Both the position numbers and the translations under genes were made by a program. This document shows positions 3,109 through 23,850 of a stretch of DNA of 64,000 bases, one piece after another. The stretch is from Patescibacteria group bacterium (GTDB lineage: Bacteria; Patescibacteriota; UBA1384; 2-12-FULL-50-11), in the NCBI GenBank assembly GCA_016861245.1, contig BOKZ01000001.1:415746-479745 (forward strand), written 5' to 3'. Each line of letters opens with the position of its first letter. Within the stretch, counting starts at the first letter, position 1. A model generated the notes under the pieces. The model searched no databases, was not told the DNA's origin, and saw nothing but the letters and a program-made list of their open reading frames with translations.

Positions 3109-5694
3109 ATGGGGTTTTTTCAAAAAATTTTTGGTGACCCAAACGAGAAAGAAGTCAGCAAATACCAGAAGATTGTTGACGAAGTTAACGCGTTCGAACC
3201 AGGCCTCGAGAAGAAAACGGATGCAGAGTTGCGCAAACAGTCGCTTGAGCTGCGCGACAAGATCAGAACGGCAGTGACTACTGTAATTGCCGAAACTGAG
3301 CCTATTCCTGACCGCGTTGAACAAAATACAACTCGTAAAAAATTAATAAACAAGATACTTGAACCAGAATTAGCATGTGCTTTTGCTTTAGTTAGAGAGG
3401 CGTCTAAACGAACACTCGGATTGCGACATTATGATGTTCAAATTATAGGTGGCGTCGTTCTCCATCAAGGGCAGATCGCCGAGATGCAAACGGGAGAAGG
3501 TAAGACGCTAGTCGCGACGTTGCCGCTTTATCTTAATGCATTAACAGGACTTGGTGTTCACTTGGTTACGGTCAACGATTACCTCGCCCGACGTGACGCG
3601 GGGTGGATGAGTCAAATTTACGACTTTCTTGGGTTAACAGTTGGTGTAATCGGACCGCAGTTTTCTTTTATCTACGATTCCTCTTTCGATAACGGCGAGA
3701 ATGATTGGAGACTTCAGCGGCTGCGCCCAGTCGAGCGTCGCGAAGCGTACGCTGCCGACATCACCTACGGCACAAACAACGAGTACGGATTCGACTACCT
3801 TCGCGATAACATGCTTCAAGACGCAAATCAGCTTGTACAAAGAGAATTAGCATATGCTATCGTGGATGAAGTAGATTCAATTTTAATTGATGAAGCTCGA
3901 ACGCCGTTGATAATCTCGGCACCATCTTCAGAATCAGCTGGCTATTATAAAGAATTTGCCAAACATGTTAAAACATTAAAACCACAGACAGACTTTATCG
4001 TAGATGAAAAAGCCAAAAGCGCAGCGCTAACCAATGAAGGAATACAGAAACTGGAAAAAGCAGCCGGTGTCAGCAACCTATACGATCCTTCAAACGCTCA
4101 ACTTGTTCATTACGCCGACACAAGCTTAAAAGCATATGCTTTATTTAAGAAGAATAAAGATTACGTGGTTAAAGACGGACAAATAGTTATCGTTGATGAA
4201 TTTACTGGGCGGTTACTGCACGGGCGTCGATACTCAAGTGGACTTCACCAGGCGATTGAAGCTAAAGAAGGGGTGATAGTTCAAGAGGAGTCGGTTACGC
4301 TCGCTACGATTACCTTTCAAAACTACTTCCGACTCTACTTTAAGCTTGCCGGTATGACCGGAACAGCAAGCACGGAAGCAGAAGAATTCTCGAAGATTTA
4401 CCACCTAGAAGTTGTTTCGATACCGACAAATCGGCCGTCGCAGCGACGCGATTTAGCTGATGTAGTATATAAAACTGAGAGAGCAAAATTTAAGGCCGTA
4501 GCGGAATTAGTTCGGGAGTTGCAGCAAAACGGTCAACCAGTGTTAATTGGGACAGTCTCGATCGCCAAATCTGAAACGATCAGTAAACTACTGAAAAGCG
4601 AAAAAATCGAGCACCGCGTTCTTAACGCTAAATTTCACCAAAAAGAAGGCGAGATCGTAGCCGAAGCCGGACTGCCTGGGTCGGTAACGGTTGCAACTAA
4701 TATGGCTGGTCGTGGCGTCGACATCGTACTGGGCGGTCCGCCGCCGTCGAGCGACGCGCCCAAACAAGAATTTACGATCTGGGAGAAACGACACCAAGAG
4801 ATATTGGAAAGAGGGGGATTATACGTAATTGGTACCGAACGACACGAGTCGCGACGTATCGACAACCAGCTGCGCGGTCGAGCCGGCCGTCAAGGCGACC
4901 CAGGTGTTAGTCAGTTCTTTGTCTCGATGGAAGACGATTTAATGCGAATTTTCGGCGGCGATCGAATGAAGGCGATTATGGAGCGTCTCAACATCCCAGA
5001 AGACCTAAGTATCAATAACAAACTTCTCTCAAGGGCAATCGAACAAGCCCAGTCAAAGGTGGAGACACACAACTTCGATATTCGTAAACAACTAGTTGAA
5101 TACGACGACGTTATGAACAAGCATCGCGAAGCGATCTATCGGCGTCGAGAGCGGATAGTCCGATCAACGTTTAGCGACGAAGCGGCCATCGAATTTCACG
5201 ATGAGCTAGTACAGCTTTTCACTGAAGAGCAGCAAAAGTCGTACGAAGCTCGTTCGAAAGATTGGGGGACGCAGCTGAGATTTGAAGTTGAGCGAGCAGT
5301 AGTACTGCGCGCTATCGACGTACTCTGGGTTGAACATCTTAAAAACCTCGAAGATTTACGTGAGAGTATCGGGTTACAAGCGTACGGTCAGCGTGAACCG
5401 CTCGTAGAATATAAACAACAAGCCTACCGAATCTTTTCTGAGCTCCAAGATACGATTAATCGACAAATTGTTGAAATGCTTCTACACGTCAATGTCGGTT
5501 CTGCGCCCCCAGAGCAGCAGACGAATCAGAGGGTGGCGTACAATAAGCAAGAAGAAGTTACCCAGCCCCAAAGCCAAACAAACAAAATCGGTCGAAACGA
5601 TCCGTGCCCGTGCGGAGCGATCGACCCAGTGACAGGTAAGGTCTACAAGTATAAAAAATGCGGCTTAATTAACGCGCCGCATCACCGTCAGTAG
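3109..5694 (+). CDS. secA: Preprotein translocase ATPase SecA. The likely start is MGFFQKIFG at 3109; the ORF-track start at 3091 overlaps serS.
   Basis: Has a DEAD-like motor (GEGKTLVATLPLYLNAL, DEVDSILIDEARTPLIIS) and a C-terminal zinc finger (CPCGA...KKCG). Confidence 0.93.
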   Translation: MGFFQKIFGDPNEKEVSKYQKIVDEVNAFEPGLEKKTDAELRKQSLELRDKIRTAVTTVIAETEPIPDRVEQNTTRKKLINKILEPELACAFALVREASKRTLGLRHYDVQIIGGVVLHQGQIAEMQTGEGKTLVATLPLYLNALTGLGVHLVTVNDYLARRDAGWMSQIYDFLGLTVGVIGPQFSFIYDSSFDNGENDWRLQRLRPVERREAYAADITYGTNNEYGFDYLRDNMLQDANQLVQRELAYAIVDEVDSILIDEARTPLIISAPSSESAGYYKEFAKHVKTLKPQTDFIVDEKAKSAALTNEGIQKLEKAAGVSNLYDPSNAQLVHYADTSLKAYALFKKNKDYVVKDGQIVIVDEFTGRLLHGRRYSSGLHQAIEAKEGVIVQEESVTLATITFQNYFRLYFKLAGMTGTASTEAEEFSKIYHLEVVSIPTNRPSQRRDLADVVYKTERAKFKAVAELVRELQQNGQPVLIGTVSIAKSETISKLLKSEKIEHRVLNAKFHQKEGEIVAEAGLPGSVTVATNMAGRGVDIVLGGPPPSSDAPKQEFTIWEKRHQEILERGGLYVIGTERHESRRIDNQLRGRAGRQGDPGVSQFFVSMEDDLMRIFGGDRMKAIMERLNIPEDLSINNKLLSRAIEQAQSKVETHNFDIRKQLVEYDDVMNKHREAIYRRRERIVRSTFSDEAAIEFHDELVQLFTEEQQKSYEARSKDWGTQLRFEVERAVVLRAIDVLWVEHLKNLEDLRESIGLQAYGQREPLVEYKQQAYRIFSELQDTINRQIVEMLLHVNVGSAPPEQQTNQRVAYNKQEEVTQPQSQTNKIGRNDPCPCGAIDPVTGKVYKYKKCGLINAPHHRQ

Positions 5695-7829: not shown

Positions 7830-8600
7830 ATGACAACCGACATACAAAAAGCTGACCAGGAAATTCTTCGCATCGGGGCGCCGGCTAAATCCGAGCGGAA
7901 AATAAATACGTCTTCAAAGCCGTTGATCGAATTCAAAAAAGTAACGATGCAGTACCCCGGTCGGCTGGCGGTAAGAGAAGTTGATCTGGAAATCCGCGAG
8001 GGCGAGTTTGTTTGTTTGGTTGGTCAAAGCGGTGTCGGTAAAACAACACTAATTAAGCTTCTGACTATTCAGGAAACCCCGACTACCGGGGAGGTCTATG
8101 TTGCCGGCCGGAACTTGGCGGATTTGCGCAGTAAAGAAGTGCCGCTCTACCGAAGAAAAATCGGAGTAGTTTTTCAGGACTTTAAGTTACTGCCCCAGAA
8201 AACTGTGTGGGAGAATGTGGCGTTCGCCATGGAGGTTTGTGGTTTTTCGAACGCAGAGATCGCGAAGCGAACAGAAAAAGTGCTTGATTTAGTTAATTTG
8301 GGTCGGCGGGCAAAGAATTATCCGCACGAACTCTCTGGCGGCGAACGACAGCGCGTCGCGATCGCTCGGGCCCTGGTTCACTCCCCCAAAATTTTAATCG
8401 CCGACGAGCCAACCGGGAACCTAGATCCAGTTAATACTTGGGAAATTATCGAGTTGTTGTACCGAATTCATCAGAAAGGAACAACAATTATTCTTGCTAC
8501 GCACAACCGCCAAGTTGTCGACCGTATCCAGAAGCGAGTAGTACTGATGAAGTCTGGGAAAATCGTCAGCGATCAGCACGGAGGTAAATATGTCATATAA
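7830..8600 (+). CDS. ftsE: Cell-division ABC ATPase FtsE. The N-terminal extension is uncertain.
   Basis: Walker A (GQSGVGKTT), ABC signature (LSGGERQRVAIARAL), Walker B (ILIADEPTGNLD). It is immediately upstream of, and overlapping, ftsX. Confidence 0.8.
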   Translation: MTTDIQKADQEILRIGAPAKSERKINTSSKPLIEFKKVTMQYPGRLAVREVDLEIREGEFVCLVGQSGVGKTTLIKLLTIQETPTTGEVYVAGRNLADLRSKEVPLYRRKIGVVFQDFKLLPQKTVWENVAFAMEVCGFSNAEIAKRTEKVLDLVNLGRRAKNYPHELSGGERQRVAIARALVHSPKILIADEPTGNLDPVNTWEIIELLYRIHQKGTTIILATHNRQVVDRIQKRVVLMKSGKIVSDQHGGKYVI

Positions 8601-9516
8601 ACTCGAAACCGTGTTGCGGATTGTAAAGCTCGGCCTAAATAATTTTTGGAGAAACCGCTGGTTAACGCTCGGGGCGACACTTTTAATGACGTTAACGCTA
8701 ACGATGATTAGCGTCTTTTTGCTCTTCTCGTTTATCGTTCGTGATACCGCGGAGGCGATTCGTTCGAAGATCGACGTCACAATTTACTTTACCGATGACG
8801 CCGTAGCAGACGAGAAAATTATGGCGCTTGCCGATCGAATTAAATCGCAGCCAAACATTCAGGAAGTTATCTTTGTGAATAAGAAACAAGCGCTAGAAAT
8901 ATGGCAACGACTGCCAATTAACGAGGACGTTAAAAAGCCAGTGAGCGACTCATACAATCCGCTGCCCCGAAGTCTCCAAGTTGATACAACCGACCCAGAC
9001 GAAATACAGGGAGTAGTGAGTAGTATCGAAATCGCCGATACCGAGAAACTCATCTGTAACGAGTGCGTGTCGTACGTTAAAAACAAAGATGCAGTTAACA
9101 AGCTCGTTAGTATTACTCGGTTAGTTCAGCGAGTCGGACTATTTTTAAGTATTTTCTTTGGAATAATTGCCATATTCAACGTGCTTAATATTATTCGCAT
9201 CACCATCTCGGCCCGCTCAGATGAGATCGAAATTATGCGATACGTCGGTGCGTCAAATGCCTTTGTCCGCGGTCCGTTTGTAGTTGAAGGAGTGCTTTAC
9301 GGAGTGCTCGGTACGATAATAACTACTTTGTTTATTGTGTTAGTTTCACAAATTGCCAGCGGATATATTAGTATCACCGCTGACGTTTTGAACTTAAGTT
9401 TCGGCGCGTACGTACTTCATTACATCTGGCAAATTATCGGTTTTCAGCTGCTTATCGGTGTAATTCTAGGCGTAGTTGTTAGTGTTATCTCAATGCGGCG
9501 GTATCTACGAGCTTAA
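8590..9516 (+). CDS. ftsX: Cell-division permease FtsX.
   Basis: 308 aa. It has an N-terminal TM, a large extracellular loop, and three C-terminal TMs (FtsX/MacB permease topology), and it is translationally coupled to ftsE. Confidence 0.75.
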   Translation: MSYKLETVLRIVKLGLNNFWRNRWLTLGATLLMTLTLTMISVFLLFSFIVRDTAEAIRSKIDVTIYFTDDAVADEKIMALADRIKSQPNIQEVIFVNKKQALEIWQRLPINEDVKKPVSDSYNPLPRSLQVDTTDPDEIQGVVSSIEIADTEKLICNECVSYVKNKDAVNKLVSITRLVQRVGLFLSIFFGIIAIFNVLNIIRITISARSDEIEIMRYVGASNAFVRGPFVVEGVLYGVLGTIITTLFIVLVSQIASGYISITADVLNLSFGAYVLHYIWQIIGFQLLIGVILGVVVSVISMRRYLRA

Positions 9517-9553
9517 CATTGCAACCGACAAGCGGCGTGCTAGGATAGGTATA

Positions 9554-10726
9554 ATGAGCAAATCGTTAATTGTGCGACTTATTAGCTTTTTTCTTGTGCT
9601 AACACTTGGTATCGCAACGCTCGCGCCGATGAGCGCACAGGCTGAGACACTCGATGAATTGCTAAGGCGCCAAGCTGAGCTAAAAAGAAAAGAAGAGCAA
9701 AACCGAAAAGCCCTCGAGCAAAAAAAGCGAGAAGCGAGTAACTTGCGAGAGTTGATTGGAGATTTGGATGGAGACATTAGTTATACTTCAAGCCGAATTC
9801 AAAACACCGAAGAGCAGATCGCGGCAACAAATAGCGTTATTAATCTTTTGATTCAAGATATCCAGAAGCAACAGACCGAGCTTGATGCCTTGTCGGCTAA
9901 ACTCAAGGGCGCGTACGTAAATCTCTACCAGCTCTCACAAACTAGTACGATGGAGTTATTACTTCAGAGTCCTAATCTTGAAGAAGCGCTCTCGCAAGCG
10001 GAGTATATCCAAGCGATCCAAACTGATCTGCGAAAGAATATCGACACCGTTAATGCGTTAAAAACCGATCTCGAAAAAAAGAAGACAGATAATGAGAGCC
10101 AAAAGGCAAACCTTGAGACACTCAGACAAGAGCTTGATCGATCGAGGGGGACGTTAACGAGCCAGAAAAATCAGAAAAATTACTTACTTAACCAAACTCA
10201 GGGAGAACAAGCTCAGTATGAAGAACTACTGAAAAAGCTTTCAGCGCAGCAAGAACAGCTTGGGGCGGAAATCTACGAAGCACGTCGACGAGCATCGTCT
10301 GGCGAGAACGTTAGCGGCGGCAGCGGTGGATACCCATGGGCTAACGAACCAAACCCATACGCTGTTGATCCGTGGTTATTCTACAAGAGGCAGTGTACCT
10401 CTTTTGCTGCCTGGAAATTCCAATCAGTCTATGGTCGCGCCTTTATTAATACACGACCAGGAAATGGCAGCGCCTGGAACTGGCCAGCGTTAGCAACTGA
10501 TCCCGAGAATGGCTACAGAGTAAGCACGAGCCCGCGCGTGAATTCCATTGTTTCTTGGCCGCGCGGTACTAACATGCCATATGGGCACGTCGCCTGGGTA
10601 ATTGCAGTGAATGGAAACGGAACAATTGATGTTGAAGAGTATAACTGGACAACCGAGCGCGGTTATAGCAAGCGCACAAATGTTAACCCAAACAACTACG
10701 GCTCGGCTCGATATATTTATCCTTAA
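9554..10726 (+). CDS. PcsB-like peptidoglycan hydrolase: signal peptide, long coiled-coil, C-terminal CHAP domain.
   Basis: MSKSLIVRLISFFLVLTLG signal. About 220 aa of heptad-rich sequence. The CHAP Cys...His region is CTSFAAWKF...GHVAWVIAVNGNG. It sits directly after ftsEX, as pcsB does in Firmicutes. Confidence 0.6.
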   Translation: MSKSLIVRLISFFLVLTLGIATLAPMSAQAETLDELLRRQAELKRKEEQNRKALEQKKREASNLRELIGDLDGDISYTSSRIQNTEEQIAATNSVINLLIQDIQKQQTELDALSAKLKGAYVNLYQLSQTSTMELLLQSPNLEEALSQAEYIQAIQTDLRKNIDTVNALKTDLEKKKTDNESQKANLETLRQELDRSRGTLTSQKNQKNYLLNQTQGEQAQYEELLKKLSAQQEQLGAEIYEARRRASSGENVSGGSGGYPWANEPNPYAVDPWLFYKRQCTSFAAWKFQSVYGRAFINTRPGNGSAWNWPALATDPENGYRVSTSPRVNSIVSWPRGTNMPYGHVAWVIAVNGNGTIDVEEYNWTTERGYSKRTNVNPNNYGSARYIYP

Positions 10727-13911: not shown

Positions 13912-15426
13912 ATGCTGGGGTATCAACGAAGCCGAGTTTGGGAGATTATTCCGGGATTACTAACCTGGACGACGTTAACTGGATTAATATTGCTTGCAGT
14001 TTTTAACCCACCTGTCCTAACGATGCTAGTCTTGCTTTACGCGATCTACTGGTTAATTAAAGTCTTTCTCATCACTGGATACTTACTAGCCGGTTTTGCT
14101 AGATATAACCGTGAGCGTAAAATTGATTGGCTAACTAAACTCAACAACGATTATCCCGAGGCACAGAATAGGTTTTACCACGTCGCCATCGTGCCAACCT
14201 ATAAAGAGGATATCTCAATTCTTCGGCACACCATCGATGCCATAAGAATGAGCAACTACCCAGCTGATCGGTTGATTGTTGTTGCAGCGTTTGAAGGGCG
14301 TGAAAAAGAGTTAGCGCCGGAGTACGCCAAGATCTTAACGCACGAGTACGAACACGCGTTTTTTCATTTTATGACTACTAGCCACCCAGCAGATATCGAA
14401 GGTGAAGTTCGTGGAAAAGGGCCGAATATCACCTGGGCGGCGCGTCGGGTTAAGGAATATCTTGATGAGAAAAAAATTAAGTATTCTGACGCTATTCTCA
14501 CAACACTCGACGCCGATAACCGGGTTGATCGCGACTATTTTGCCAACCTTACCTGGTCTTACTGTGCCGACCCAGACCCAATTCATAAAAGTTTTCAGCC
14601 GCTACCGATGTTTTTCAATAATATCTGGCAAGTGCCGTTACCGGTAAAACTGACGGCGCTCGGCTCATCCTTTTGGCAGCTCATTCAGGCTATGCGACCG
14701 CACTACTCGCGTAACTTCGCCGCCCACGCTCAGAGTTTCGAAGCCCTGGTACAAACAGATTTCTGGTCGGTTGCGACGGTGGTTGAAGACGGGCATCAGT
14801 ACTGGCGTTCGTACTTTAGATTTGACGGTAACCACCACGTGGTGCCGCTATTTGTGCCGGTTTATATGGACGCAGTTCAGGGTGAAGATATTATGGACAC
14901 GTTTCGCGAGCAGTATCTTCAACGTCGCCGCTGGTTCTGGGGGGTTTCTGACGTTCCGTATGTCTTTCGGCATTCGTTCGGTAATCCTCGAATTCCGTTT
15001 TTATATAAATGGTTGCAATTTTTACGGTTGTTCGAGTCTCATTACTCGCTTGCTACACAGTCGTTTATTCTGCTAATCGGTTGGCTACCGATAGTTGTGA
15101 ACCCGGATTTTCGAGATAGCGTGCTTGGCTATAATTTTCCTACTGTTTATAGAACATTTCTGATAGCAGCATGGACTGGTATGATCGCCAACATGCTCGT
15201 GGCATCTCTACTAGTGCCACCACGACCTGGTAAGCGCTCGGTCTACGTTCTTACAATTATTAAAGAGTGGTTGTTAGCGCCGGTGTTGCTGCCAGTTAGC
15301 GGCATATTTTTCTCGGCGATCCCGGCGATCGACTCGCAGACGCGTATGTTATTCAATAAGCCGTTTACTGTCTTTAACGTCACCAAAAAAACCGCGATTC
15401 CTAGCGGTGTGCTAGTAAAAGACTAG
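13912..15426 (+). CDS. Processive family-2 glycosyltransferase (cellulose/chitin/hyaluronan-synthase-like).
   Basis: Multi-TM protein with a DxD motif (TLDADNR) and a QxxRW processivity motif (QRRRWFWG). Confidence 0.55.
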   Translation: MLGYQRSRVWEIIPGLLTWTTLTGLILLAVFNPPVLTMLVLLYAIYWLIKVFLITGYLLAGFARYNRERKIDWLTKLNNDYPEAQNRFYHVAIVPTYKEDISILRHTIDAIRMSNYPADRLIVVAAFEGREKELAPEYAKILTHEYEHAFFHFMTTSHPADIEGEVRGKGPNITWAARRVKEYLDEKKIKYSDAILTTLDADNRVDRDYFANLTWSYCADPDPIHKSFQPLPMFFNNIWQVPLPVKLTALGSSFWQLIQAMRPHYSRNFAAHAQSFEALVQTDFWSVATVVEDGHQYWRSYFRFDGNHHVVPLFVPVYMDAVQGEDIMDTFREQYLQRRRWFWGVSDVPYVFRHSFGNPRIPFLYKWLQFLRLFESHYSLATQSFILLIGWLPIVVNPDFRDSVLGYNFPTVYRTFLIAAWTGMIANMLVASLLVPPRPGKRSVYVLTIIKEWLLAPVLLPVSGIFFSAIPAIDSQTRMLFNKPFTVFNVTKKTAIPSGVLVKD

Positions 15427-16067
15427 TTGTTTGGCTTAGAGCTAACGAAGTAGTTGTGAGTGACTGACCCGCTTATTCCGTTACCGATTACTATTCCCGA
15501 TAAATCGTATCCCCATCCCTGGACTCTATTTCGAATAAAGGTAATCGATGACGAATCGTTAACACCGTTGTTATTTATATTAACGCTTGGTGCCGTTTCC
15601 ATCTTTGCCAAAATATAATATCCGGCTTTTGGGCGCGGATCGCTGTTTGGCGGTATGGTGTTCCCTGCCACAAAGTAGATGTACTCGCCAGATGAGTTAC
15701 TATTGGTTAACTCGCTACACCCACCGACTGAGGCAGGTAGTTTATTGATGGGATCCTCGGGGATTGTAGGCAAAATCAACGGCGCAAGCGCTGCCCGATT
15801 TGAAGCGCAATTACTAACTAAACCAGCTTCGAATTGCCAGCGAGCGTTGTAAATATTACCGCGGGCGCTATTAAACGACGGGTAATTACGATTATCGAGA
15901 TAGTATTGCTCTAACGCGTTTTTGATACTGTCTAAGTCCGTTTTACGTTGACCGTCTCGAGAACGTTTAAGCGAGCTACTATAAACCATCGTCGTAATAG
16001 CCACCAATATCCCGATAATAGTGATCGTTGTTAGTACTTCAATAAGAGTAAATCCACGTTTAGACAT
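15423..16067 (-). CDS. Type IV pilin / pseudopilin with a prepilin-peptidase cleavage motif.
   Basis: MSKRGFTLIEVLTTITIIGILVAI, the class III signal peptide (G/FTLIE), and a conserved Glu at +5. Confidence 0.7.
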   Translation of the reverse strand: MSKRGFTLIEVLTTITIIGILVAITTMVYSSSLKRSRDGQRKTDLDSIKNALEQYYLDNRNYPSFNSARGNIYNARWQFEAGLVSNCASNRAALAPLILPTIPEDPINKLPASVGGCSELTNSNSSGEYIYFVAGNTIPPNSDPRPKAGYYILAKMETAPSVNINNNGVNDSSSITFIRNRVQGWGYDLSGIVIGNGISGSVTHNYFVSSKPNN

Positions 16068-16123
16068 ATATGTAGCGTTGCGTATTTTAATGCTAATATC
16101 AACACATTCCTTATTGGAGGTAT

Positions 16124-16549
16124 TTGTACTTGAGTAAGCGTGAGATAGAACGAAAAAAGCTCGATACCAAGATGCTGTGGGGGATCGGAATTACTTCTAC
16201 GGCAATTGCTGGTGTGTTATGGATACTAAATAGGCACAAGAACAAGCAATATTCAGAACGCGCGGCGGAGATTGATCTTCGAGACGACGCTCGAATCAAG
16301 ATCCTCGACGAGCGTCTGATTGAGATTGACCTAAAGATTCAGTTTGAGCAGGACGAGGATGTAAAGGCGATTCTCGGGGAGCTTAGGACACAGGCTATTC
16401 GTGAAAAACAGCGCATCATCGAATCCCGGAGCTTGTCGCTGCCAACCCGGCTCGCCATCGAGACTTGTGATGAGGCCGCAGCTAACTGCGATCACGAGCT
16501 AGACTTGCGGACTGATCAGCAGAATTCCGAGCAAACCGACAGTGGCTAA
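16124..16549 (+). CDS. Hypothetical membrane-anchored coiled-coil protein.
   Basis: 141 aa. One TM (GIGITSTAIAGVLWIL) followed by a charged helical region. Confidence 0.3.
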   Translation: MYLSKREIERKKLDTKMLWGIGITSTAIAGVLWILNRHKNKQYSERAAEIDLRDDARIKILDERLIEIDLKIQFEQDEDVKAILGELRTQAIREKQRIIESRSLSLPTRLAIETCDEAAANCDHELDLRTDQQNSEQTDSG

Positions 16550-16617
16550 CATGTTAGCCACTTTTTTCTACGTATCGACGTGAGTCGGTCCGTGATTGCA
16601 AGGCAACACGGGTGTGT

Positions 16618-16691
16618 ATTCTGTTTGCGGTCCCGACGGGAGTCGAACCCGTGATTTCCTGGATGAAAACCAGGCGTCCTAGGCCACTAGA
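16618..16691 (-). tRNA. tRNA-Glu (anticodon TTC).
   Basis: Minus-strand cloverleaf GGTCCCGTCGTCTAGTGGCCTAGGACGCCTGG-TTTTCAT-CCAGG...GGTTCGACTCCCGTCGGGACCG. Acceptor, D, anticodon and T stems all pair. Confidence 0.8.
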
Positions 16692-16790
16692 CGACGGGAC
16701 CAATAGCAATATTTTACGTTTAACAGGATCGAAAATCAATCTTCGTGTTCAAAAGTTGACAGCCATGCTGATTGTCGTGAATATAAAAGT

Positions 16791-17438
16791 ATGAATCGAA
16801 CAACGTTGTTACATATGGGAATTGGTTTTGTTTTGGCGCTGGCTGGCGCTGCGATGCTGTACGTTTCTAAAGGAGACGTTAAAACTTCTGCTCAAACGAA
16901 TACGCCGTACACAAGCACCTGGACTGCAAGTAGCGTACTAACAGTAGATGCCCGTGTTGGCACATCTCAAGTAGGCCAGGCTGCTTTAGGTGTATGGGGC
17001 TGGACAGTTGCTGGAACGGTAGGCTCAAAATCGTTTACGGAAACTTGGCAGGCGCCAAGTATAACTGGTGTTAGCTTTACCCCCCGCTCAGTTGGTTGCG
17101 ACTTAGTGGGACTTAATGCCCAACAGTTATTGGGTGGTTGCTTTGCCGATCAAAATGAGATCGGTGGCCCAGACACATCTAGTTATACTTTTGCCGTTCG
17201 ACCGCCGAGTGAGGTTGTTAGTAATAAATCCAGATATAACAGCGGATCAGGGTTACAAAGGGCTATCAGCTGCATAAACTCTCCGAGAAACGGCGATGAG
17301 ACGGAATGTCTGATTCAAAGTGGTTCGTACGCGTTTCAACATGTTCACGAACCGGGGTTCCCGAGCCGTGATCGTTGGCTCGGTGGTGGCGTATTAATGC
17401 CACTAGTATGGACCGTTACCGGAAGCATCAGAAACTAA
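16791..17438 (+). CDS. Secreted protein, member A of a three-copy paralog family (hypothetical).
   Basis: Signal/TM at the N-terminus. It shares the motifs YTSTWTA..LTVD, TETWQAP, two Cys, GSY, and G.LMPL.W.VTG.I with the ORFs at 18246 and 18881. Confidence 0.45.
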   Translation: MNRTTLLHMGIGFVLALAGAAMLYVSKGDVKTSAQTNTPYTSTWTASSVLTVDARVGTSQVGQAALGVWGWTVAGTVGSKSFTETWQAPSITGVSFTPRSVGCDLVGLNAQQLLGGCFADQNEIGGPDTSSYTFAVRPPSEVVSNKSRYNSGSGLQRAISCINSPRNGDETECLIQSGSYAFQHVHEPGFPSRDRWLGGGVLMPLVWTVTGSIRN

Positions 17439-17489
17439 CTTCTTCACAGCTCGACTATTTTTCAGTAGAATTAACTGGTTAATTAGCCA

Positions 17490-17561
17490 GGCGCCCGTAG
17501 CTCAGCGGTAGAGCACTTCCTTGACGTGGAAGGGGTCTTCAGTTCGATCCTGAACGGGCGC
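17490..17561 (+). tRNA. tRNA-Val (anticodon GAC).
   Basis: GCGCCCG-TA-GCTCAGCGGTAGAGC-A-CTTCC-TTGACGT-GGAAG-GGGTC-TTCAGTTCGATCCTGAA-CGGGCGC-A. Confidence 0.8.
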
Positions 17562-17613
17562 ACATGACAAATATAAAAAATATTAAAGAGAGGGAGGGCG
17601 ACGTTAGTCGACT

Positions 17614-17631
17614 ATCCTGAACGGGCGCACA
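17614..17631 (+). repeat. 18-nt direct duplicate of the tRNA-Val 3' end (ATCCTGAACGGGCGCACA), 67 bp downstream of the original copy (17547-17564).
   Basis: Exact 18/18 match. Both copies are immediately followed by ATG. The second copy abuts the ppiB start codon. Confidence 0.7.
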
Positions 17632-18210
17632 ATGAAAATCACACATATTATTATCGGTGTTATAGCGGTAGCGGGTGTATTTTTACTAATTCCGCAATCA
17701 GAAAATAAACAAGGAGGCGTTAAAAAAATGACAGGCGATCCAACAACTTTTGAACAAGTTTCTGCAACAAAAGCGACGATCAAAACCGAAAAAGGCGAGA
17801 TCCAGCTCGAGCTTTACCCTCAAGATGCGCCAAAAACGGTGACAAACTTTGCAACGCTAGCTAAAAACGGTTTCTACGACGGTTTAACATTTCACCGTGT
17901 TGAGCCAGGCTTTGTTATCCAGGGTGGCGATCCGGACGGCAACGGTACCGGCGGAGTCTCAATTTACGGATCAGAGTTCGAAGATGAACTAAACGAGGAC
18001 ACGCCGTCGTATAAAAATGGGTACAAAGAAGGTGTGCTGGCTATGGCTAATCGCGGGCCAAATACCAATAGCAGTCAGTTTTTCATTATGCTCGCCGACA
18101 ACGACTCGTTACCAAAAAATTACACAATTTTCGGGAAGGTGACTACCGGAATGGATGTAGTAAAGAACATTGCTGTCGGTGACGTTTTGCTTTCAATTAC
18201 TGCAGAATAA
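17632..18210 (+). CDS. ppiB: Cyclophilin-type peptidyl-prolyl cis-trans isomerase, membrane-anchored/secreted.
   Basis: FHRVEPGFVIQGGDPDGNGTGG and SMANRGPNTNSSQFFI motifs. N-terminal TM helix. Confidence 0.85.
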   Translation: MKITHIIIGVIAVAGVFLLIPQSENKQGGVKKMTGDPTTFEQVSATKATIKTEKGEIQLELYPQDAPKTVTNFATLAKNGFYDGLTFHRVEPGFVIQGGDPDGNGTGGVSIYGSEFEDELNEDTPSYKNGYKEGVLAMANRGPNTNSSQFFIMLADNDSLPKNYTIFGKVTTGMDVVKNIAVGDVLLSITAE

Positions 18211-18245
18211 CTTGACGCTCACCGCTAGTTTGTCATGATAGAAAC

Positions 18246-18881
18246 ATGACAAAGATGATTTTTTCGTTGATAGGTATGTCTCTGCTGGCAGTTGGTGCTA
18301 TTAGTGGGGGATCGAGTGCACGAGCTCAAGGTTCGGAAACCTATACCACGACCTGGACGGCTACTAAACTTATAACTGTTGATTCAGCAGGTGGCTGGAG
18401 AGATGTCGGGATTCTGCGAAACGTGCCAATTGGCGTAGCTGAGTGGCAAGTTGACGCTCGGGCTGGTGCTGGTGGCGCCCAACTATTTAGCGAAACCTGG
18501 AAGGTGCCAGCGGATAATGAAATATTATTTGATCCGGGAACTCAGAATACGACCGGGACAGGATTTAACCCCGCTGAATGGATTTTTGCCAACCATATAG
18601 CGGTATTTGGAGATACGCCTGATGGCGGTAGGGTTCGCTATAAATTTCAGTCACCAAGTATCTTAAACCCTGGCTACAAGTACACTAAAGATCAGGCGAG
18701 GGTTGGCGGAAACGGTGTTCAGTGTGTAACTACGACGGACTCGAATTGTCTTATGTCTCGCGGTTCGTATGGGTGGGAAGTCTACCACTCTGTTAGTAAC
18801 CTTGGTTCAACTCGCGGTCGTATCAGCGCTTCTGGGGTGATGATGCCGCTAAAATTGGTGGTTACCGGAACAATTTACTAA
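18246..18881 (+). CDS. Secreted protein, paralog B of the family (hypothetical).
   Basis: 211 aa, about 75% identical to the next ORF (TWTATKLITVDSAGGW..NVGILRNVPIGVAEWQVDARA...). Confidence 0.5.
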   Translation: MTKMIFSLIGMSLLAVGAISGGSSARAQGSETYTTTWTATKLITVDSAGGWRDVGILRNVPIGVAEWQVDARAGAGGAQLFSETWKVPADNEILFDPGTQNTTGTGFNPAEWIFANHIAVFGDTPDGGRVRYKFQSPSILNPGYKYTKDQARVGGNGVQCVTTTDSNCLMSRGSYGWEVYHSVSNLGSTRGRISASGVMMPLKLVVTGTIY

Positions 18882-19546
18882 TGGCGGTTACCCAAAGAGT
18901 TAGGGTAGTAGTGGGAGTAGCTCTTGCAGTAGCTGGTTTTCTATTTCTCTTTTTCAGTACGAGAAATGCAGCACAACTAACAACACAAGCACAAACCGGA
19001 CAAAATTATACCAGCACATGGGAGGCAACTAAACTCATAACTGTTGACTCGGCAGGTGGCTGGAATAACGTCGGTATTTTGCGAAACGTGCCAATTGGCG
19101 TAGCTGAGTGGCAAGTTGACGCCCGGGCTGCTATTGGCGGCGCACAGTTATTTACAGAGACTTGGAGGACACCAACTTCTTCTGAGATCGTATATAACCC
19201 AGCCGATCAGACACTGACCGGCAGCGGTTTTAATAGTGCCGACTGGATCTTTGCAAATCATATTGGGATATTCGGGGACACGCCTGATGGCGGTAGAGTT
19301 CGATATAAATTTCAGTCACCAAGTGTCTTAAACCCTGGCTACAAGTACACCAAAGATAATGCAAAAGTCGGAGGAAATGCTATCCAGTGTAGGAGTAATT
19401 CAGACTCGAATTGCCTGATGCCAAGAGGATCATACGGGTGGGAAGTATATCACGCGTTAGGAAACCTTGGATCTGATCGAGGCCGAATTAGCGCCTCTGG
19501 TTTGATGATGCCAGCCAAGTGGATTATCACAGGCACAATTTACTAG
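18881..19546 (+). CDS. Secreted protein, paralog C (tandem duplicate of B).
   Basis: 221 aa. The ATG overlaps the stop of paralog B. Long stretches are identical to B at the nucleotide level. Confidence 0.5.
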   Translation: MAVTQRVRVVVGVALAVAGFLFLFFSTRNAAQLTTQAQTGQNYTSTWEATKLITVDSAGGWNNVGILRNVPIGVAEWQVDARAAIGGAQLFTETWRTPTSSEIVYNPADQTLTGSGFNSADWIFANHIGIFGDTPDGGRVRYKFQSPSVLNPGYKYTKDNAKVGGNAIQCRSNSDSNCLMPRGSYGWEVYHALGNLGSDRGRISASGLMMPAKWIITGTIY

Positions 19547-19552
19547 AGACAG

Positions 19553-19858
19553 ATGAAGGTGCGTAAGATTATTTTAATTATTGTCGACAATTTTTTGGCA
19601 ATTGGTTTGTTCATTTTCGCGGTTGGTGTTTTGTCGTATTACAACAGTTCAAGACAAAACGCTGTTAGCTCGTTGCCAGTAAAGACTTCACTAACTGAAC
19701 GTGATATCGCCATTACTGAGGCAGTTAAAAACGGTAAGAAAGAATACACTTTTACGACCCGTTTTATACCTGGTGTTGGTGTAATAACAGACCCCGAAGC
19801 GTATAAGAAGGAATGGGAGCAGCAGCTCCAGGAAGACAGTAACAAAAAAGCGCCGTAG
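19553..19858 (+). CDS. Small membrane-anchored protein (hypothetical).
   Basis: 101 aa, one N-terminal TM helix, followed by a strong terminator. Confidence 0.3.
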   Translation: MKVRKIILIIVDNFLAIGLFIFAVGVLSYYNSSRQNAVSSLPVKTSLTERDIAITEAVKNGKKEYTFTTRFIPGVGVITDPEAYKKEWEQQLQEDSNKKAP

Positions 19859-19872
19859 TGGCGCTTTTTTGT
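19844..19872. terminator. Bidirectional rho-independent terminator (AAAAAAGCGCC-GTAGT-GGCGCTTTTTT).
   Basis: Perfect 5-bp GC stem, 5-nt loop, flanked by an A-run and a T-run. It lies between convergent genes. Confidence 0.7.
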
Positions 19873-19881
19873 TGCGAGTAA

Positions 19882-20580
19882 TTAAGCCCGCCTTACTTCG
19901 ATCTTTTTTACTTTCGGTTTTGTTGGCTCTATTTTTGGAGCGATGATTTTCAGCGTACCGTTCTCCATCTTCGCCTCGACTTTATCTTCTTTGATCGGGT
20001 GGGTAAAGCGGATAGAGCGTCTGAATTGGCTGTGTTGCCATTCGCGTCGAACAACATCTCTACCCTCTTTTTTCTCTTCTTCTTTGGCGCCGGAGACTGT
20101 TAGGGTGTTCTCGGTCATCTCGATCGTAACTTCCTTTTCCGTGTAGCCCGGAACCTGGAACTCGATCTCGTACTCTTTTTCGCTCTCGTGAATGTTCATC
20201 GCGCCCGTCGTTGCTTGTAGAGCGCTAGACCAATCTCCACGACCGAACGTTCGTTCGATCATGCTATTCATCTCTTCCTGCATATGATCGATCGCTTGAA
20301 ACGGATTCCATGGCGTTAGTTGCATCTGCTTTTCACCCCCTTTCTCGATTTGGCTTACAAGTTGTTGATTATTTTTCGGTGAGACGCCGTCGATCAGCTG
20401 GTCGATCGGACAGTCGAAAAATTCAATCAGCGAGATCAGCACCGGCATACTCGGTAGATACTCGCCGCGCTCGAGTGAGATAATCGACTGTCGCGATACC
20501 TGAAGTGCTCGAGCCAATTCTTCTTGGCTCAAGTCGTTCGCCTGCCGCAGCTCTCGAAGTAGTAACCGAAATTTTGTCAT
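19882..20580 (-). CDS. Fusion protein: N-terminal XRE-family HTH DNA-binding domain plus C-terminal Hsp20/alpha-crystallin domain. The likely start is MTKFRLLL at 20580, not the ORF-track 20622.
   Basis: The HTH is LRELRQANDLSQEELARALQVSRQSIISLERGEYLPSMPVLISLIEFF. The ACD-like beta-sandwich has the pattern W.P......MQEEM...... / EYEIEFQVPGYTKEEVTIEM.ENTLTVSGAKEEEKKE...REWQHSQFRRSIRF...V..DKVEAKMENGTLKII.PK. Confidence 0.6.
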   Translation of the reverse strand: MTKFRLLLRELRQANDLSQEELARALQVSRQSIISLERGEYLPSMPVLISLIEFFDCPIDQLIDGVSPKNNQQLVSQIEKGGEKQMQLTPWNPFQAIDHMQEEMNSMIERTFGRGDWSSALQATTGAMNIHESEKEYEIEFQVPGYTEKEVTIEMTENTLTVSGAKEEEKKEGRDVVRREWQHSQFRRSIRFTHPIKEDKVEAKMENGTLKIIAPKIEPTKPKVKKIEVRRA

Positions 20581-20595
20581 CGTTTCTACGAATAA

Positions 20596-20613
20596 TGTAA
20601 AGTAAACTTTACA
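20596..20613. promoter_or_regulatory. Perfect palindrome TGTAAAG-TAAA-CTTTACA, 16 nt upstream of the XRE-Hsp20 start. Candidate autoregulatory operator.
   Basis: 7-bp perfect inverted arms with a 4-nt spacer, positioned in the leader of the HTH gene. Confidence 0.45.
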
Positions 20614-20690
20614 CAGCGTCAAGATAAGAACTCCCCAAGCTTGTCTAATTGTTGTTGATTAGCTAGCATTAAGAAAATGCGAGGGGGAAA

Positions 20691-21548
20691 CTGAATAATA
20701 AACTAATATTACCGATCACTGCCGTAGCGGTAGCAGTTGCGATAATCGTTTTTGTATTCTCCTCAATGAGGATCTTCCGAGCAGAAGTGGCAAATGAGCC
20801 CGGTGGTGAGGGGCAAACAACACAAGGTACCGGTACAGGTAGCGGATCAACGAGCAACAGCAATACAACCACAACCGAGCCGTGTGTGGTTGCAGTTGAA
20901 GGAGAGGAATCACCAGATCCAAACTGCGGCACCACTACCAATAACAATACTGGCAACACCGGTAACACGAGTAATAACACAACCAGCAATAGCACGAGCA
21001 ACTCAACTACCAACTCAAATACGAACAGTAACACTACTAACTCAACCACAGGTAATACTAGCGGCTCTACAACCGGCTCTGGTACGACAAATAATACACA
21101 GCCCGGCTCAACCGGAACAGGGAGCGGTAGTACTAACACTGGAACAGCTCCAAGCACGAACAGTACTAATCTTCAGCTCGGTGACACCACCGATACAGCT
21201 GGCGCGTCTAAACAAGAAACCACACTTGGCAGTGGAATTTTCAGCGCCACAAACGGCACGTTGTGGCCAATTCTACTCTTCCCGCTGTTGTTGCTCGATG
21301 TTTTAATTCTAATTCTAGTTGCTGATACGCGAAAACGCGTTAAGAAACTACAGGAATCTTCGACGACACTTCACGATATGAACGATCCAGCGCAGCCGAT
21401 TGCTCCTCAAGTTCCAGCGGCACCAGTCGCAGCTACGCAACCGTTAGAAGAAACGGTTGTACAAGATCCGCCAGCAACGTTAGTGGATGAGAATATGGTG
21501 TTAGGTAGTAATCAGCCGCCATCAACCCCACCGCCAAGCGTTCAGTAA
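20691..21548 (+). CDS. Ser/Thr/Asn/Gly-rich low-complexity surface protein with a C-terminal TM anchor. The start is uncertain and probably non-ATG, upstream of the ORF-track ATG at 20766.
   Basis: In-frame upstream sequence encodes a hydrophobic signal-like segment (KLILPITAVAVAVAIIVFVFSS) after a GAGGGGG RBS. The body is NTGNTSNNTTSNSTSN... repeats. The C-terminus is LWPILLFPLLLLDVLILILVA followed by KRVKK. Confidence 0.45.
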   Translation: MNNKLILPITAVAVAVAIIVFVFSSMRIFRAEVANEPGGEGQTTQGTGTGSGSTSNSNTTTTEPCVVAVEGEESPDPNCGTTTNNNTGNTGNTSNNTTSNSTSNSTTNSNTNSNTTNSTTGNTSGSTTGSGTTNNTQPGSTGTGSGSTNTGTAPSTNSTNLQLGDTTDTAGASKQETTLGSGIFSATNGTLWPILLFPLLLLDVLILILVADTRKRVKKLQESSTTLHDMNDPAQPIAPQVPAAPVAATQPLEETVVQDPPATLVDENMVLGSNQPPSTPPPSVQ

Positions 21549-21549
21549 T

Positions 21550-22764
21550 TTACTCGAACCGAAGCGCTTCAACTGGGTTCTTGCGAGCGGCGCGAATTGC
21601 TGGGAATAACCCAAAGACGATACCGGCAATCCCACCCATACTCAGAGCGATTCCAATAGTCTGTAGCGTAATTAAAGGTTCGAGCGGCGAGTATTTTGCT
21701 GCCAGTAGAGAGGTACCGTAGGCCATCAAAAGACCAATAACTGAGCCAATCACCGTTAGGAGCACCGCCTCAATCAAAAACTGGAGCAAAATTGCGCCTT
21801 CAGTGGCGCCGACAGCTTTACGGATACCGATCTCGCGAGTTCGCTCAGCAACGGTTACAAGCATGATATTTGAGATCCCGATTCCACCCACTAGCAGCGA
21901 GATTGAAGCGATACCAACCACCATATAGGCCAAGACGTCAGTAATCTGGTTAATCGTTTCGAGCAAATCAGTCGGTTTTAATACCGTAAAATCAGTGGAG
22001 CCGTGTTTGGCCGTAAGTAGATTCTTTACTTCCTCACGAGCCTCATCGACCTTGTTGATATCTTTTGCGTAAACAACTACTCGATTAACTTGTTCTGATT
22101 GATTGATCTCATTGGCAACGGTAACAGGTATTAGAAACATATCTCCGCTACTGGATGTTAGGTTTAGCTCTTGTTCGATCTCAAATATTCCGGTCAGCTT
22201 AAAATTATTAGCGCCAATTGATAATTCGTCGCCAATCGTCGCCCCAAGTTTTTCCGCGGCATTTTTTGAAATAACAATAACTTTTTCTTTTTTATCGACG
22301 TTTTCTTGGGAAATGCCTTCGCCCTCTTTTATAACAACGCTAAATAAATCGGCCGCTCCCGGTGTGATGCCAACAGGTAAACCGCTAATTTTTGTTGTGC
22401 CCTTAGAAACTAGGCCACCGATAAAAGTAGCGTAATCAACTGGCTGATCGATTAATTTTGCGTTCTGACTAAGATAAATAATGTCATCGACAAACAGCGT
22501 TGAAGGGGCAAAGTTTGCCGTTATATTAGGAGTGCCGTTCTCTGCTTCTTCACCGGGTAATATCATAATCGTTTTCGGTCCAAAATCTTCTACTGAACTC
22601 GTTATCTGTTTTTGGACGCCCTGAGCAGCAGCCAATAGGGTGACAACAGCGTATATCCCAATAATTACGCCAAGAATTGTAAGGAAACTTCGCAACCTAT
22701 TTGCCCAAATAGATTTAAGCGCAGAACGTAGACTATCAATTAGCATTTTTTCTATCCTCAACAA
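21550..22764 (-). CDS. ABC transporter permease, MacB/FtsX-like.
   Basis: 404 aa. N-terminal TM, large periplasmic domain, C-terminal FtsX-type 3-TM bundle. It overlaps the upstream ATPase gene. Confidence 0.7.
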   Translation of the reverse strand: MLRIEKMLIDSLRSALKSIWANRLRSFLTILGVIIGIYAVVTLLAAAQGVQKQITSSVEDFGPKTIMILPGEEAENGTPNITANFAPSTLFVDDIIYLSQNAKLIDQPVDYATFIGGLVSKGTTKISGLPVGITPGAADLFSVVIKEGEGISQENVDKKEKVIVISKNAAEKLGATIGDELSIGANNFKLTGIFEIEQELNLTSSSGDMFLIPVTVANEINQSEQVNRVVVYAKDINKVDEAREEVKNLLTAKHGSTDFTVLKPTDLLETINQITDVLAYMVVGIASISLLVGGIGISNIMLVTVAERTREIGIRKAVGATEGAILLQFLIEAVLLTVIGSVIGLLMAYGTSLLAAKYSPLEPLITLQTIGIALSMGGIAGIVFGLFPAIRAARKNPVEALRFE

Positions 22765-23468: not shown

Positions 23469-23850
23469 AGGGCCTGTCACGGCTTCGACGGGAACATTTA
23501 CAACTAAAGCACGCAAGCGGAGAGGACACGCCTTATCGTCCACAATTAACGTGCAAACGTTTTTGCAAAAGCTAAAGCTTCGATCGCGCAAGCTTTCGCG
23601 CCTAGCTTTGCTCCAGCAGTAGCGTAACGCTCACTGCCGTTTCAATAATCGATGCTACTACATTATTGAGGCGCTATATTTGTAGCTAGACGACGTCGCT
23701 GTGTCCGACGTTGTTCGAATCTCTACACTGCTCTATCGAAGTATTTCGTTTACTTCAAGCCTCGATAGCTAAGAAATTAAGTAAACTACGCTTGTAGACA
23801 CTTTAGTTGTTCGTTTTCGGACGCGGGTTCAACTCCCGCCAGGTCCACCA
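23469..23850 (+). ncRNA. ssrA: Transfer-messenger RNA (ssrA/tmRNA).
   Basis: The 5' end GGGCCTGTCACGGCTTCGACGGG matches the conserved tmRNA start (cf. GGGGCUG...UUCGACGGG). The 3' end is a tRNA-like T-arm and acceptor, GGACGCGGGTTCAACTCCCGCCAGGTCCACCA. The 5' and 3' ends pair as an acceptor stem. An internal Ala-rich tag ORF GCA AAC GTT...GTA GCG TAA (23553-23627) encodes ANVFAKAKASIAQAFAPSFAPAVA. Confidence 0.8.

Follow-up and report, generated by a model that had tools for sequence, protein, structure and literature searches.

The window analysed here is a 64,000-nucleotide stretch of contig BOKZ01000001.1 (assembly GCA_016861245.1) from a Patescibacteria group bacterium. It carries three related genes for small exported proteins, designated up, d1 and d2, which are placed around a tRNA-Val gene and ppiB (Table 1). 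The gene up occupies a conserved slot between tRNA-Glu on the minus strand and tRNA-Val on the plus strand, tRNA-Val and ppiB are situated between up and the d1/d2 pair, and the stop codon of d1 and the start codon of d2 share one base (TAATG at 18879–18883). The d1/d2 pair is followed by tm101, a gene coding for a small membrane protein. No other copies of the family were found in the 64-kb window by a hidden Markov model (HMM) scan. The comparisons described below show that the three open reading frames (ORFs) are functional paralogs and belong to a rare family that lacks annotation and is confined to Patescibacteria.

The paralogy of the three ORFs, their position on both sides of tRNA-Val and ppiB and the overlap of d1 with d2 had been proposed in an earlier sequence-only reading, and all three proposals are borne out by the alignments. 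The products of d1 and d2 share 73% identity over 188 aa (E-value, 6 × 10−112), and that of up is 29–31% identical to both over 196–219 aa (E-values, 3 × 10−14 to 6 × 10−21). The similarity extends across the whole mature domain and is not confined to the signal peptide. At the nucleotide level, d1 and d2 are 70% identical overall, with 76%, 80% and 52% identity at the three codon positions, a pattern that fits coding constraint. The long identical runs mentioned in the sequence-only reading do exist (43 nt, the longest exact run, and 25 nt), but they are modest in extent.

The same reading considered the d1/d2 pair to be a recent tandem duplication and called for a pairwise estimate of nonsynonymous (dN) and synonymous (dS) divergence. 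The Nei–Gojobori method gave a dN of 0.24, a dS of 1.17 and a ratio (omega) of 0.21. Synonymous sites are saturated over most of the gene (proportion of synonymous differences, pS, ~0.75), and pS drops to 0.17–0.19 in two patches only (d1 aa 54–68 and 129–143), which contain the 43-nt and 25-nt runs and are best read as short gene-conversion tracts. Moreover, d1 and d2 each have orthologs in other strains (loci L005, L006 and L092). A recent duplication was therefore rejected on the basis of the dS value, the saturation outside the two patches and the orthologs of both copies; the duplication is old.

Membrane partner of the family genes

Analysis of the loci fetched from related genomes and metagenomes revealed that each run of family genes is bordered by a small ORF of 75–124 aa, located 3′ of the run in all but one locus (5′ in L094/L100). 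Thus, what had been described as a three-member family has a co-conserved fourth gene, tm101, that was missed, and the conserved unit consists of one to three tandem family genes and a terminal gene for a single-pass membrane protein. According to the alignments, the partner homologs have one transmembrane (TM) helix with a G-x6-G motif, followed by the sequence pattern ER..AI.EA..G..Y.FTT.F(I/T)PG(I/V)G..DP.AYK, and the soluble domain is the most conserved part of the partner across phyla. The partner family, with 31 clusters, is as rare as that of the exported proteins and likewise lacks annotation.

An HMM scan of all the fetched loci detected the partner in 17 of the 19 family-bearing loci, the other two being contigs that end before the partner position, and found it absent from all of the 70-plus family-less Saccharibacteria loci. 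In L009, the partner comes after ppiB and not after a family gene. Retrieval based on the partner only led back to the family: an adjacent family gene is present in L096 (E-value, 1 × 10−47) and in all six informative metagenome loci, two further loci being cut at the contig end. The contigs encoding the family proteins P0013 and P0020 are too short for their context to be informative, but L089 does show a partner. In addition, the 373-aa protein P0047 matches both HMMs over its full length and appears to be a fusion of a family protein and a partner; it is a singleton on a 2.3-kb contig, and the loss of a stop codon is possible. Judging by gene content and order, these results show that the partnership of the two genes is obligatory across phylum-level distances.

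The partner of the window is 95% identical to those of L005 and L006, which have the same cassette type, vs. 49% to that of L001, which has a different one. One conspecific strain (L092) has an extra module at 8001–9705, between the pilin gene and tRNA-Glu, where the window has a 141-aa ORF. This module comprises a 238-aa family gene, a 94-aa partner gene and a 210-aa gene of no known kind on the minus strand. Its family and partner products are 56% and 76% identical, respectively, to those of the L096 module, while the two modules within L092 are only 30% (family) and 36% (partner) identical to each other. Thus, the modules behave as units.

The exported domain and the distribution of the family

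The family proteins all begin with a Sec-type signal, after which comes an all-beta domain of ~180 aa whose Cys residues form closely spaced pairs. In an alignment of 86 members, an n-h-c signal (a basic N-terminus and a hydrophobic stretch of ~19 residues) and a small-residue (−3, −1) motif of the A-x-A type were found in all of the 86 sequences, with Ala at −1 in 85 of them. The site mostly lies 3–6 residues ahead of the first strand, and the hydrophobicity (H19) is mostly ~1.7–2.9, with five members having lower values. Since the A-x-A site is positionally conserved, cleavage of the family proteins by signal peptidase I at this site is suggested by a test that is heuristic and whose motif picker favours Ala. 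In the large majority of the 86 members, the ectodomain contains 2, 4 or 6 Cys residues in close pairs, an arrangement that would be expected of disulfides formed outside the cytoplasm. The N-terminal signal and extracellular location proposed in the sequence-only reading thus agree with the family-wide pattern, whereas the two Cys residues assigned to all three proteins hold for d1 and d2 only, as up has four (103, 117, 161 and 173). A prepilin motif or Glu+5 leader (searched for by regular expression), a lipobox ([LVI][ASTVI][GAS]C) and an LPXTG motif were each found in none of the 86 members. The proteins terminate at the last beta strand (...VTGTIY), and the three ORFs, unlike the neighbouring pilin, give no match to PF07963.

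An AlphaFold2 model of d2, built with the 86-sequence alignment, has a pLDDT of 93.1 and a pTM of 0.80, and consists of a helix (residues 3–28), a linker and an all-beta domain (residues 43–220) with two very long strands. The question of a beta-sandwich or lectin fold was thereby answered in part: the domain is predicted to be all-beta, but comparison of the model with PDB structures, including lectin and carbohydrate-binding module (CBM) jelly-rolls, Ig-like domains and pore-forming toxins, gave no fold match, and the modelled beta domain is without a recognisable fold relative. Invariant or near-invariant residues are W47, G73, W77, E93, W95, G183, Y185, P211, W214 and G218; among them, E93 is kept in 85 of the 86 members, and W47, W77, W95, Y185 and W214 are invariant or nearly so. 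Conservation is higher in strands (0.42) than in loops (0.28). Protein P0102 is composed of three tandem compact domains of ~115 aa, in which every core motif is retained and ~60 residues of the middle region are missing. Thus, the compact domains define a conserved scaffold of ~115 aa (motifs YTxxW, IGxAxWxV, ETWxVP, GxYGW and SG..P..W) plus variable inserts.

The family is rare. The first search, among 5.8 × 10^9 proteins, yielded 11 clusters, and an exhaustive profile search among 1.84 × 10^9 proteins yielded 112 representatives (E-value ≤ 1 × 10−3), nearly all of ~200–250 aa. The named members are hypothetical proteins from Saccharibacteria relatives and Candidatus Berkelbacteria. The 504-aa neighbour of the module (GT504) was used to retrieve 80 Saccharibacteria loci from GTDB, of which only the three closest ones (L008, L009 and L011) have the family; a direct scan of GTDB genomes with the close-family alignment found no members. 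The viral contigs scanned contained no members either, and a phage origin of the family was rejected. As the sequence-only reading had supposed, no known family was recognised: searches of Pfam, NCBIfam, PHROGs, PADLOC and PDB sequences, with single sequences and profiles, yielded only noise, at E-values of 0.01–0.15, for the family and the partner, and the sole match to bacteriocin, toxin and defence models (E-value, 0.15) is limited to the signal region. No paper describing the family was found in the literature searched.

The relatives of the 504-aa protein are named Saccharibacteria or Patescibacteria, the closest being the metagenome-assembled genome (MAG) DTUPAT3 (99% identity). The host of the locus is a tiny-genome Saccharibacteria bacterium, in agreement with the small genome presumed in the sequence-only reading.

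Variation of alleles and cassettes between strains

Six conspecific genomes, in which the 504-aa flank gene is 98–100% and ppiB 91–98% identical, were compared. The locus order in the species is tRNA-Glu, upstream slot, tRNA-Val–ppiB, cassettes and partner, and the position is fixed. Family copy number varies from three to five among these genomes and from one to five across the wider clade. The upstream slot contains one of three allele classes with 65–79% mutual identity: A (window, L006), B (L005, L092) or C (L001, L008), with L001 having an extra paralog besides its class C allele. In the downstream slot, two genes of "type A" or three genes of "type B" are present, and identity between the types is only 25–27% for the genes next to the partner. 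Downstream type A is combined with both upstream class A and class B. In a more distant relative (L007), the tRNA-Glu/tRNA-Val slot is filled by an unrelated 230-aa gene (4246–4938), which was considered as a divergent member and rejected for lack of a family match (hhalign probability, 0.1). Thus, the slot is conserved rather than its content.

The family genes are the most variable genes of the locus between strains. Nucleotide similarity between the window and L001 is lost at 17065–17409 and 18212–19763, and the flanks are 82–98% identical. The dS of up is 0.006 in comparison with L006 and 1.78 in comparison with L005, whereas the dS of the flanks is 0.05–0.38. The dS contrast together with the sharp loss of similarity is characteristic of old alleles that have been transferred by homologous recombination. 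The gene-wide omega is 0.1–0.3 in all comparisons, and gene-wide positive selection, or diversification by point mutation, was rejected. Thus, the diversification that had been proposed for the paralogs is seen between strains, although not through point mutation (gene-wide dN/dS, 0.1–0.2); the variation reflects recombinational replacement of old alleles and cassettes, each under purifying selection. Between d1 and its L005 allele, 11–12 of the 21 differences fall within aa 79–102, an insert after the ETW strand. Tandem Repeats Finder and other repeat scans of 15300–21600 revealed trivial repeats only and no inverted repeats, with no signal of phase variation, silent cassettes or invertible elements.

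On two metagenome contigs, L097 (3235–3950) and L098 (277–992), the family gene of the upstream slot is broken into three pieces and the ABC ATPase gene is broken as well, which points to an assembly error or to pseudogenisation in the population concerned. Elsewhere in the neighbourhood, the MacB/FtsX-type permease and its L001 ortholog have only 56% identity, as opposed to 97% for the ABC ATPase next to it. The permease genes lose nucleotide similarity at ~22023–22575, corresponding to the extracytoplasmic MacB_PCD domain, which is a second strain-variable exposed domain of the neighbourhood.

Possible functions and the genomic neighbourhood

The reading that we favour, if tentatively, is that the family proteins are exported binding modules with a conserved scaffold and specificity-setting variable inserts, which work with the membrane partner at the cell surface. 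The domain would be exported, probably cleaved at the A-x-A site, and would act extracellularly as a binding module. The inserts on the ~115-aa scaffold would set ligand specificity, and the partner, with which the domain would work, would probably tether it at the surface. A binding-module character is argued for by the tandem domains of P0102, the clustering of allelic changes in an insert and the higher conservation of strands compared with loops, and the variants with tandem domains or a fusion are easier to reconcile with a binding module than with a toxin. The differences in copy number and alleles between strains suggest a variable role in cell-surface recognition. The cassette diversity may result from balancing or diversifying selection acting on a component exposed at the surface; recognition of host cells or glycans by an epibiont and evasion of phages are candidate sources of such selection.

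Several observations weigh against this reading. No functional or structural homolog was found, so that binding is argued from architecture only, and the invariant E93 with its aromatic neighbours might just as well belong to the active site of an enzyme. The signal helix of the family has a conserved G-x6-G motif, which is odd for a helix that gets cleaved off. No segment of the family genes has a dN/dS > 1; the highest local pN/pS is ~0.5, in the d1 insert at aa 79–102. As for the partner, its flanking charges (K+R) are 46 vs. 44 under the positive-inside rule, and the P0047 fusion, if real, would place its conserved domain in the cytoplasm, contrary to simple extracellular docking. The family–partner mirror-tree comparison is not significant overall (Spearman, 0.24; Mantel p ~0.1), and up has no adjacent partner of its own in the window.

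The proteins might instead be envelope-maintenance factors or small extracytoplasmic enzymes that modify or assemble wall or surface polysaccharide together with the neighbouring envelope genes, namely the ppiB foldase, a polysaccharide deacetylase, the glycosyltransferase family 2 (GT2)-like membrane protein and the MacB/ABC exporter; the invariant Glu and the aromatic residues would then make up a catalytic site or one for sugar binding. The ppiB, HTH-HSP20 and MacB/ABC neighbourhood does recur across rearranged loci, a Polysacc_deac_1 gene lies inside the L096 module region, and the near-invariance of E93 and the five aromatic residues, as well as the purifying selection (omega, 0.1–0.2), would suit such a role. 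However, the family is missing from 77 of the 80 related GTDB loci that retain the GT504 neighbour, its copy number ranges from one to five with one slot allele fragmented in L097/L098, and the link to ppiB is lost in Berkelbacteria. A triple-domain protein such as P0102 would also be atypical for a catalytic domain, and none of the glycoside hydrolases and CBMs in the PDB resembles the model in fold. On balance, we regard an envelope role as unlikely.

A secreted polymorphic toxin or bacteriocin with a downstream membrane immunity protein, i.e., strain-specific cassettes for competition between related cells, would account for the small membrane protein gene located directly beside the exported-protein gene in every locus, for the change of partner with the cassette type, for the deep allelic polymorphism inside one species and for the replacement of the ectodomain of the neighbouring MacB-type permease between strains. 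The pairing is not one-to-one, however, as there are two or three family genes per partner and none for up; the soluble domain of the partner is its most conserved part across phyla, unlike in co-diversifying immunity proteins; the P0047 fusion and the triple-domain P0102 fit poorly; and there is no match to bacteriocin, toxin or defence models beyond that in the signal region. Such a function therefore seems to us quite improbable. Even less credence can be given to a type IV pilus accessory, such as a tip adhesin or a minor pilin variant used with the adjacent pilin; pilus-tip variants were among the options named in the sequence-only reading. Although the pilin-like gene is located 0.7 kb upstream and is syntenic in the Saccharibacteria clade, it lies on the opposite strand with another gene and tRNA-Glu in between, no pilin is found near the Berkelbacteria and L093 members (loci L090/L091, L093 and L094), most Saccharibacteria loci that retain GT504 lack the family, and none of the 86 members has a prepilin leader or Glu+5 motif. 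The pilus-accessory reading is largely refuted.

In terms of known systems, the family and its partner have partial parallels. Strain-variable exported paralogs of host-associated, reduced-genome bacteria include the variable surface lipoproteins of Mycoplasma and the paralogous families of Borrelia. Like these, the present genes code for small exported proteins, form tandem arrays that differ in copy number and alleles between strains, combine a conserved scaffold with variable segments and reside in a small, host-dependent genome. Unlike these, they have no lipobox, simple-sequence repeats, invertible elements or silent cassettes; the variation arises between genomes by allele or cassette replacement, a membrane partner is obligatory, and there is no sequence or fold homology. 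Strain-variable exported paralog families of reduced-genome symbionts are known as such, and it is the obligatory partner that is unusual and the predicted fold that is unmatched. CBMs and beta-sandwich lectins resemble the family in being all-beta extracellular domains of ~20 kDa with invariant aromatic and acidic residues, for which tandem repeats are possible, as in P0102. Sec-dependent bacteriocin–immunity pairs likewise consist of a gene for an exported protein and, directly after it, one for a small membrane protein, in a polymorphic locus with an ABC/MacB transporter close by. Here, however, family genes and partners are not matched one-to-one, the ectodomain of the partner shows high conservation, some variants are fused or have tandem domains, and no homology to known bacteriocins was found.

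A further case comes from another bacterium of the Candidate Phyla Radiation (CPR), a Gracilibacteria genome with a hypervariable PTD-repeat surface protein, the local hypervariation of which was read as attachment-related (Sieber et al. 2019, PMC6851277). The similarities lie in the single TM helix or signal at the N-terminus, in the beta/coil character of the extracellular protein and in the local hypervariation. However, that case concerns one large gene with a nucleotide-hypervariable repeat encoding a constant peptide (PMC6851277), in contrast to the discrete paralogous genes with amino-acid-divergent alleles and no repeats described here.

Should the proteins bind host or wall ligands, their alleles could serve as markers by which host specificity is tested at the strain level; otherwise, the family still offers structural genomics a clean target within the "dark matter" of the CPR. 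Unannotated CPR families are numerous, and this one, with a function inferred only, is a compact candidate that combines a confidently modelled exported domain without a fold relative, an obligatory partner and within-species polymorphism. Patescibacteria (CPR) are abundant, mostly uncultured epibionts and, to our knowledge, host recognition by them is little understood beyond type IV pili. A speculative and rather doubtful extension of the binding-module reading is that the two genes form a Patescibacteria-specific two-component surface system based on a new beta fold, the swappable cassettes of which decide the host cells or surface glycans recognised by an epibiotic strain. If this were true, the locus would be a strain-level determinant of host range held polymorphic by balancing selection.

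The features of the neighbourhood are listed in Table 1. The tRNA-Glu gene is kept as the border of the slot in all the Saccharibacteria relatives examined, and ppiB is a conserved neighbour in the Saccharibacteria clade only (synteny in L001–L011, L095 and L096), not being found at the Berkelbacteria family loci. The 18-nt 3′ end of tRNA-Val (17547–17564, ATCCTGAACGGGCGCACA) is exactly repeated 67 nt downstream, at 17614–17631, where it abuts the ATG of ppiB. Both copies are present in the window, L001–L003 and L008, whereas L097 and L098 hold a single copy, and L005 and L006 lack the 67-nt unit, with ppiB beginning directly after the tRNA-Val 3′ end. This polymorphism is an indel between direct repeats. 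The arrangement of the repeat suggests that tRNA-Val, ppiB and the cassettes may be transcribed together; a promoter and terminator scan of the locus gave a chance-level result only.

Table 1. Features of the family locus and its surroundings in the window.
Feature	Coordinates	Strand	Product and evidence
GT504	13912–15426	+	504-aa multi-pass membrane protein; without Pfam match
Type IV pilin-like gene	15423–16067	-	PF07963 (N_methyl), E-value 6.5 × 10−7; PF08334 (T2SSG)
ORF between pilin-like gene and tRNA-Glu	16124–16549		141 aa
tRNA-Glu(TTC)	16627–16701	-	Left border of the upstream slot; tRNA scan
up	16791–17438	+	Family member, 215 aa, four Cys; ORF and family HMM, E-value 1 × 10−56
tRNA-Val(GAC)	17491–17563	+	ARAGORN and Rfam
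ppiB	17632–18210	+	Cyclophilin-type peptidyl-prolyl isomerase with N-terminal hydrophobic helix; PF00160 (Pro_isomerase), E-value 3 × 10−45
d1	18246–18881	+	Family member, 211 aa, two Cys; ORF and family HMM, E-value 3 × 10−62
d2	18881–19546	+	Family member, 221 aa, two Cys; ORF; protein chosen for the structure model
tm101	19553–19858	+	Membrane partner, 101 aa; one TM helix
HTH_3 + HSP20/alpha-crystallin fusion	19882–20622	-	
Low-complexity protein	20766–21548	+	260 aa, Thr/Ser/Asn/Gly; without Pfam match
MacB/FtsX-type permease	21550–22764	-	
tmRNA	23470–23850	+	Solid Rfam match

The HTH_3–HSP20 fusion gene adjoins the module in all the Saccharibacteria relatives examined, even after rearrangement (L095 and L096). 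The 504-aa protein has at least 566 relatives in GTDB Patescibacteria genomes, and inspection by eye revealed DAD and QRRRW motifs reminiscent of processive GT2 glycosyltransferases. The 260-aa Thr/Ser/Asn/Gly-rich protein has a hydrophobic segment near its C-terminus and is syntenic in relatives. Finally, the tmRNA tag predicted by ARAGORN (DATTLLRRYICS) is atypical, and the tags of some relatives end in ...FAPAVA or ...LAVA; thus, the tag frame of the window was probably mis-called.

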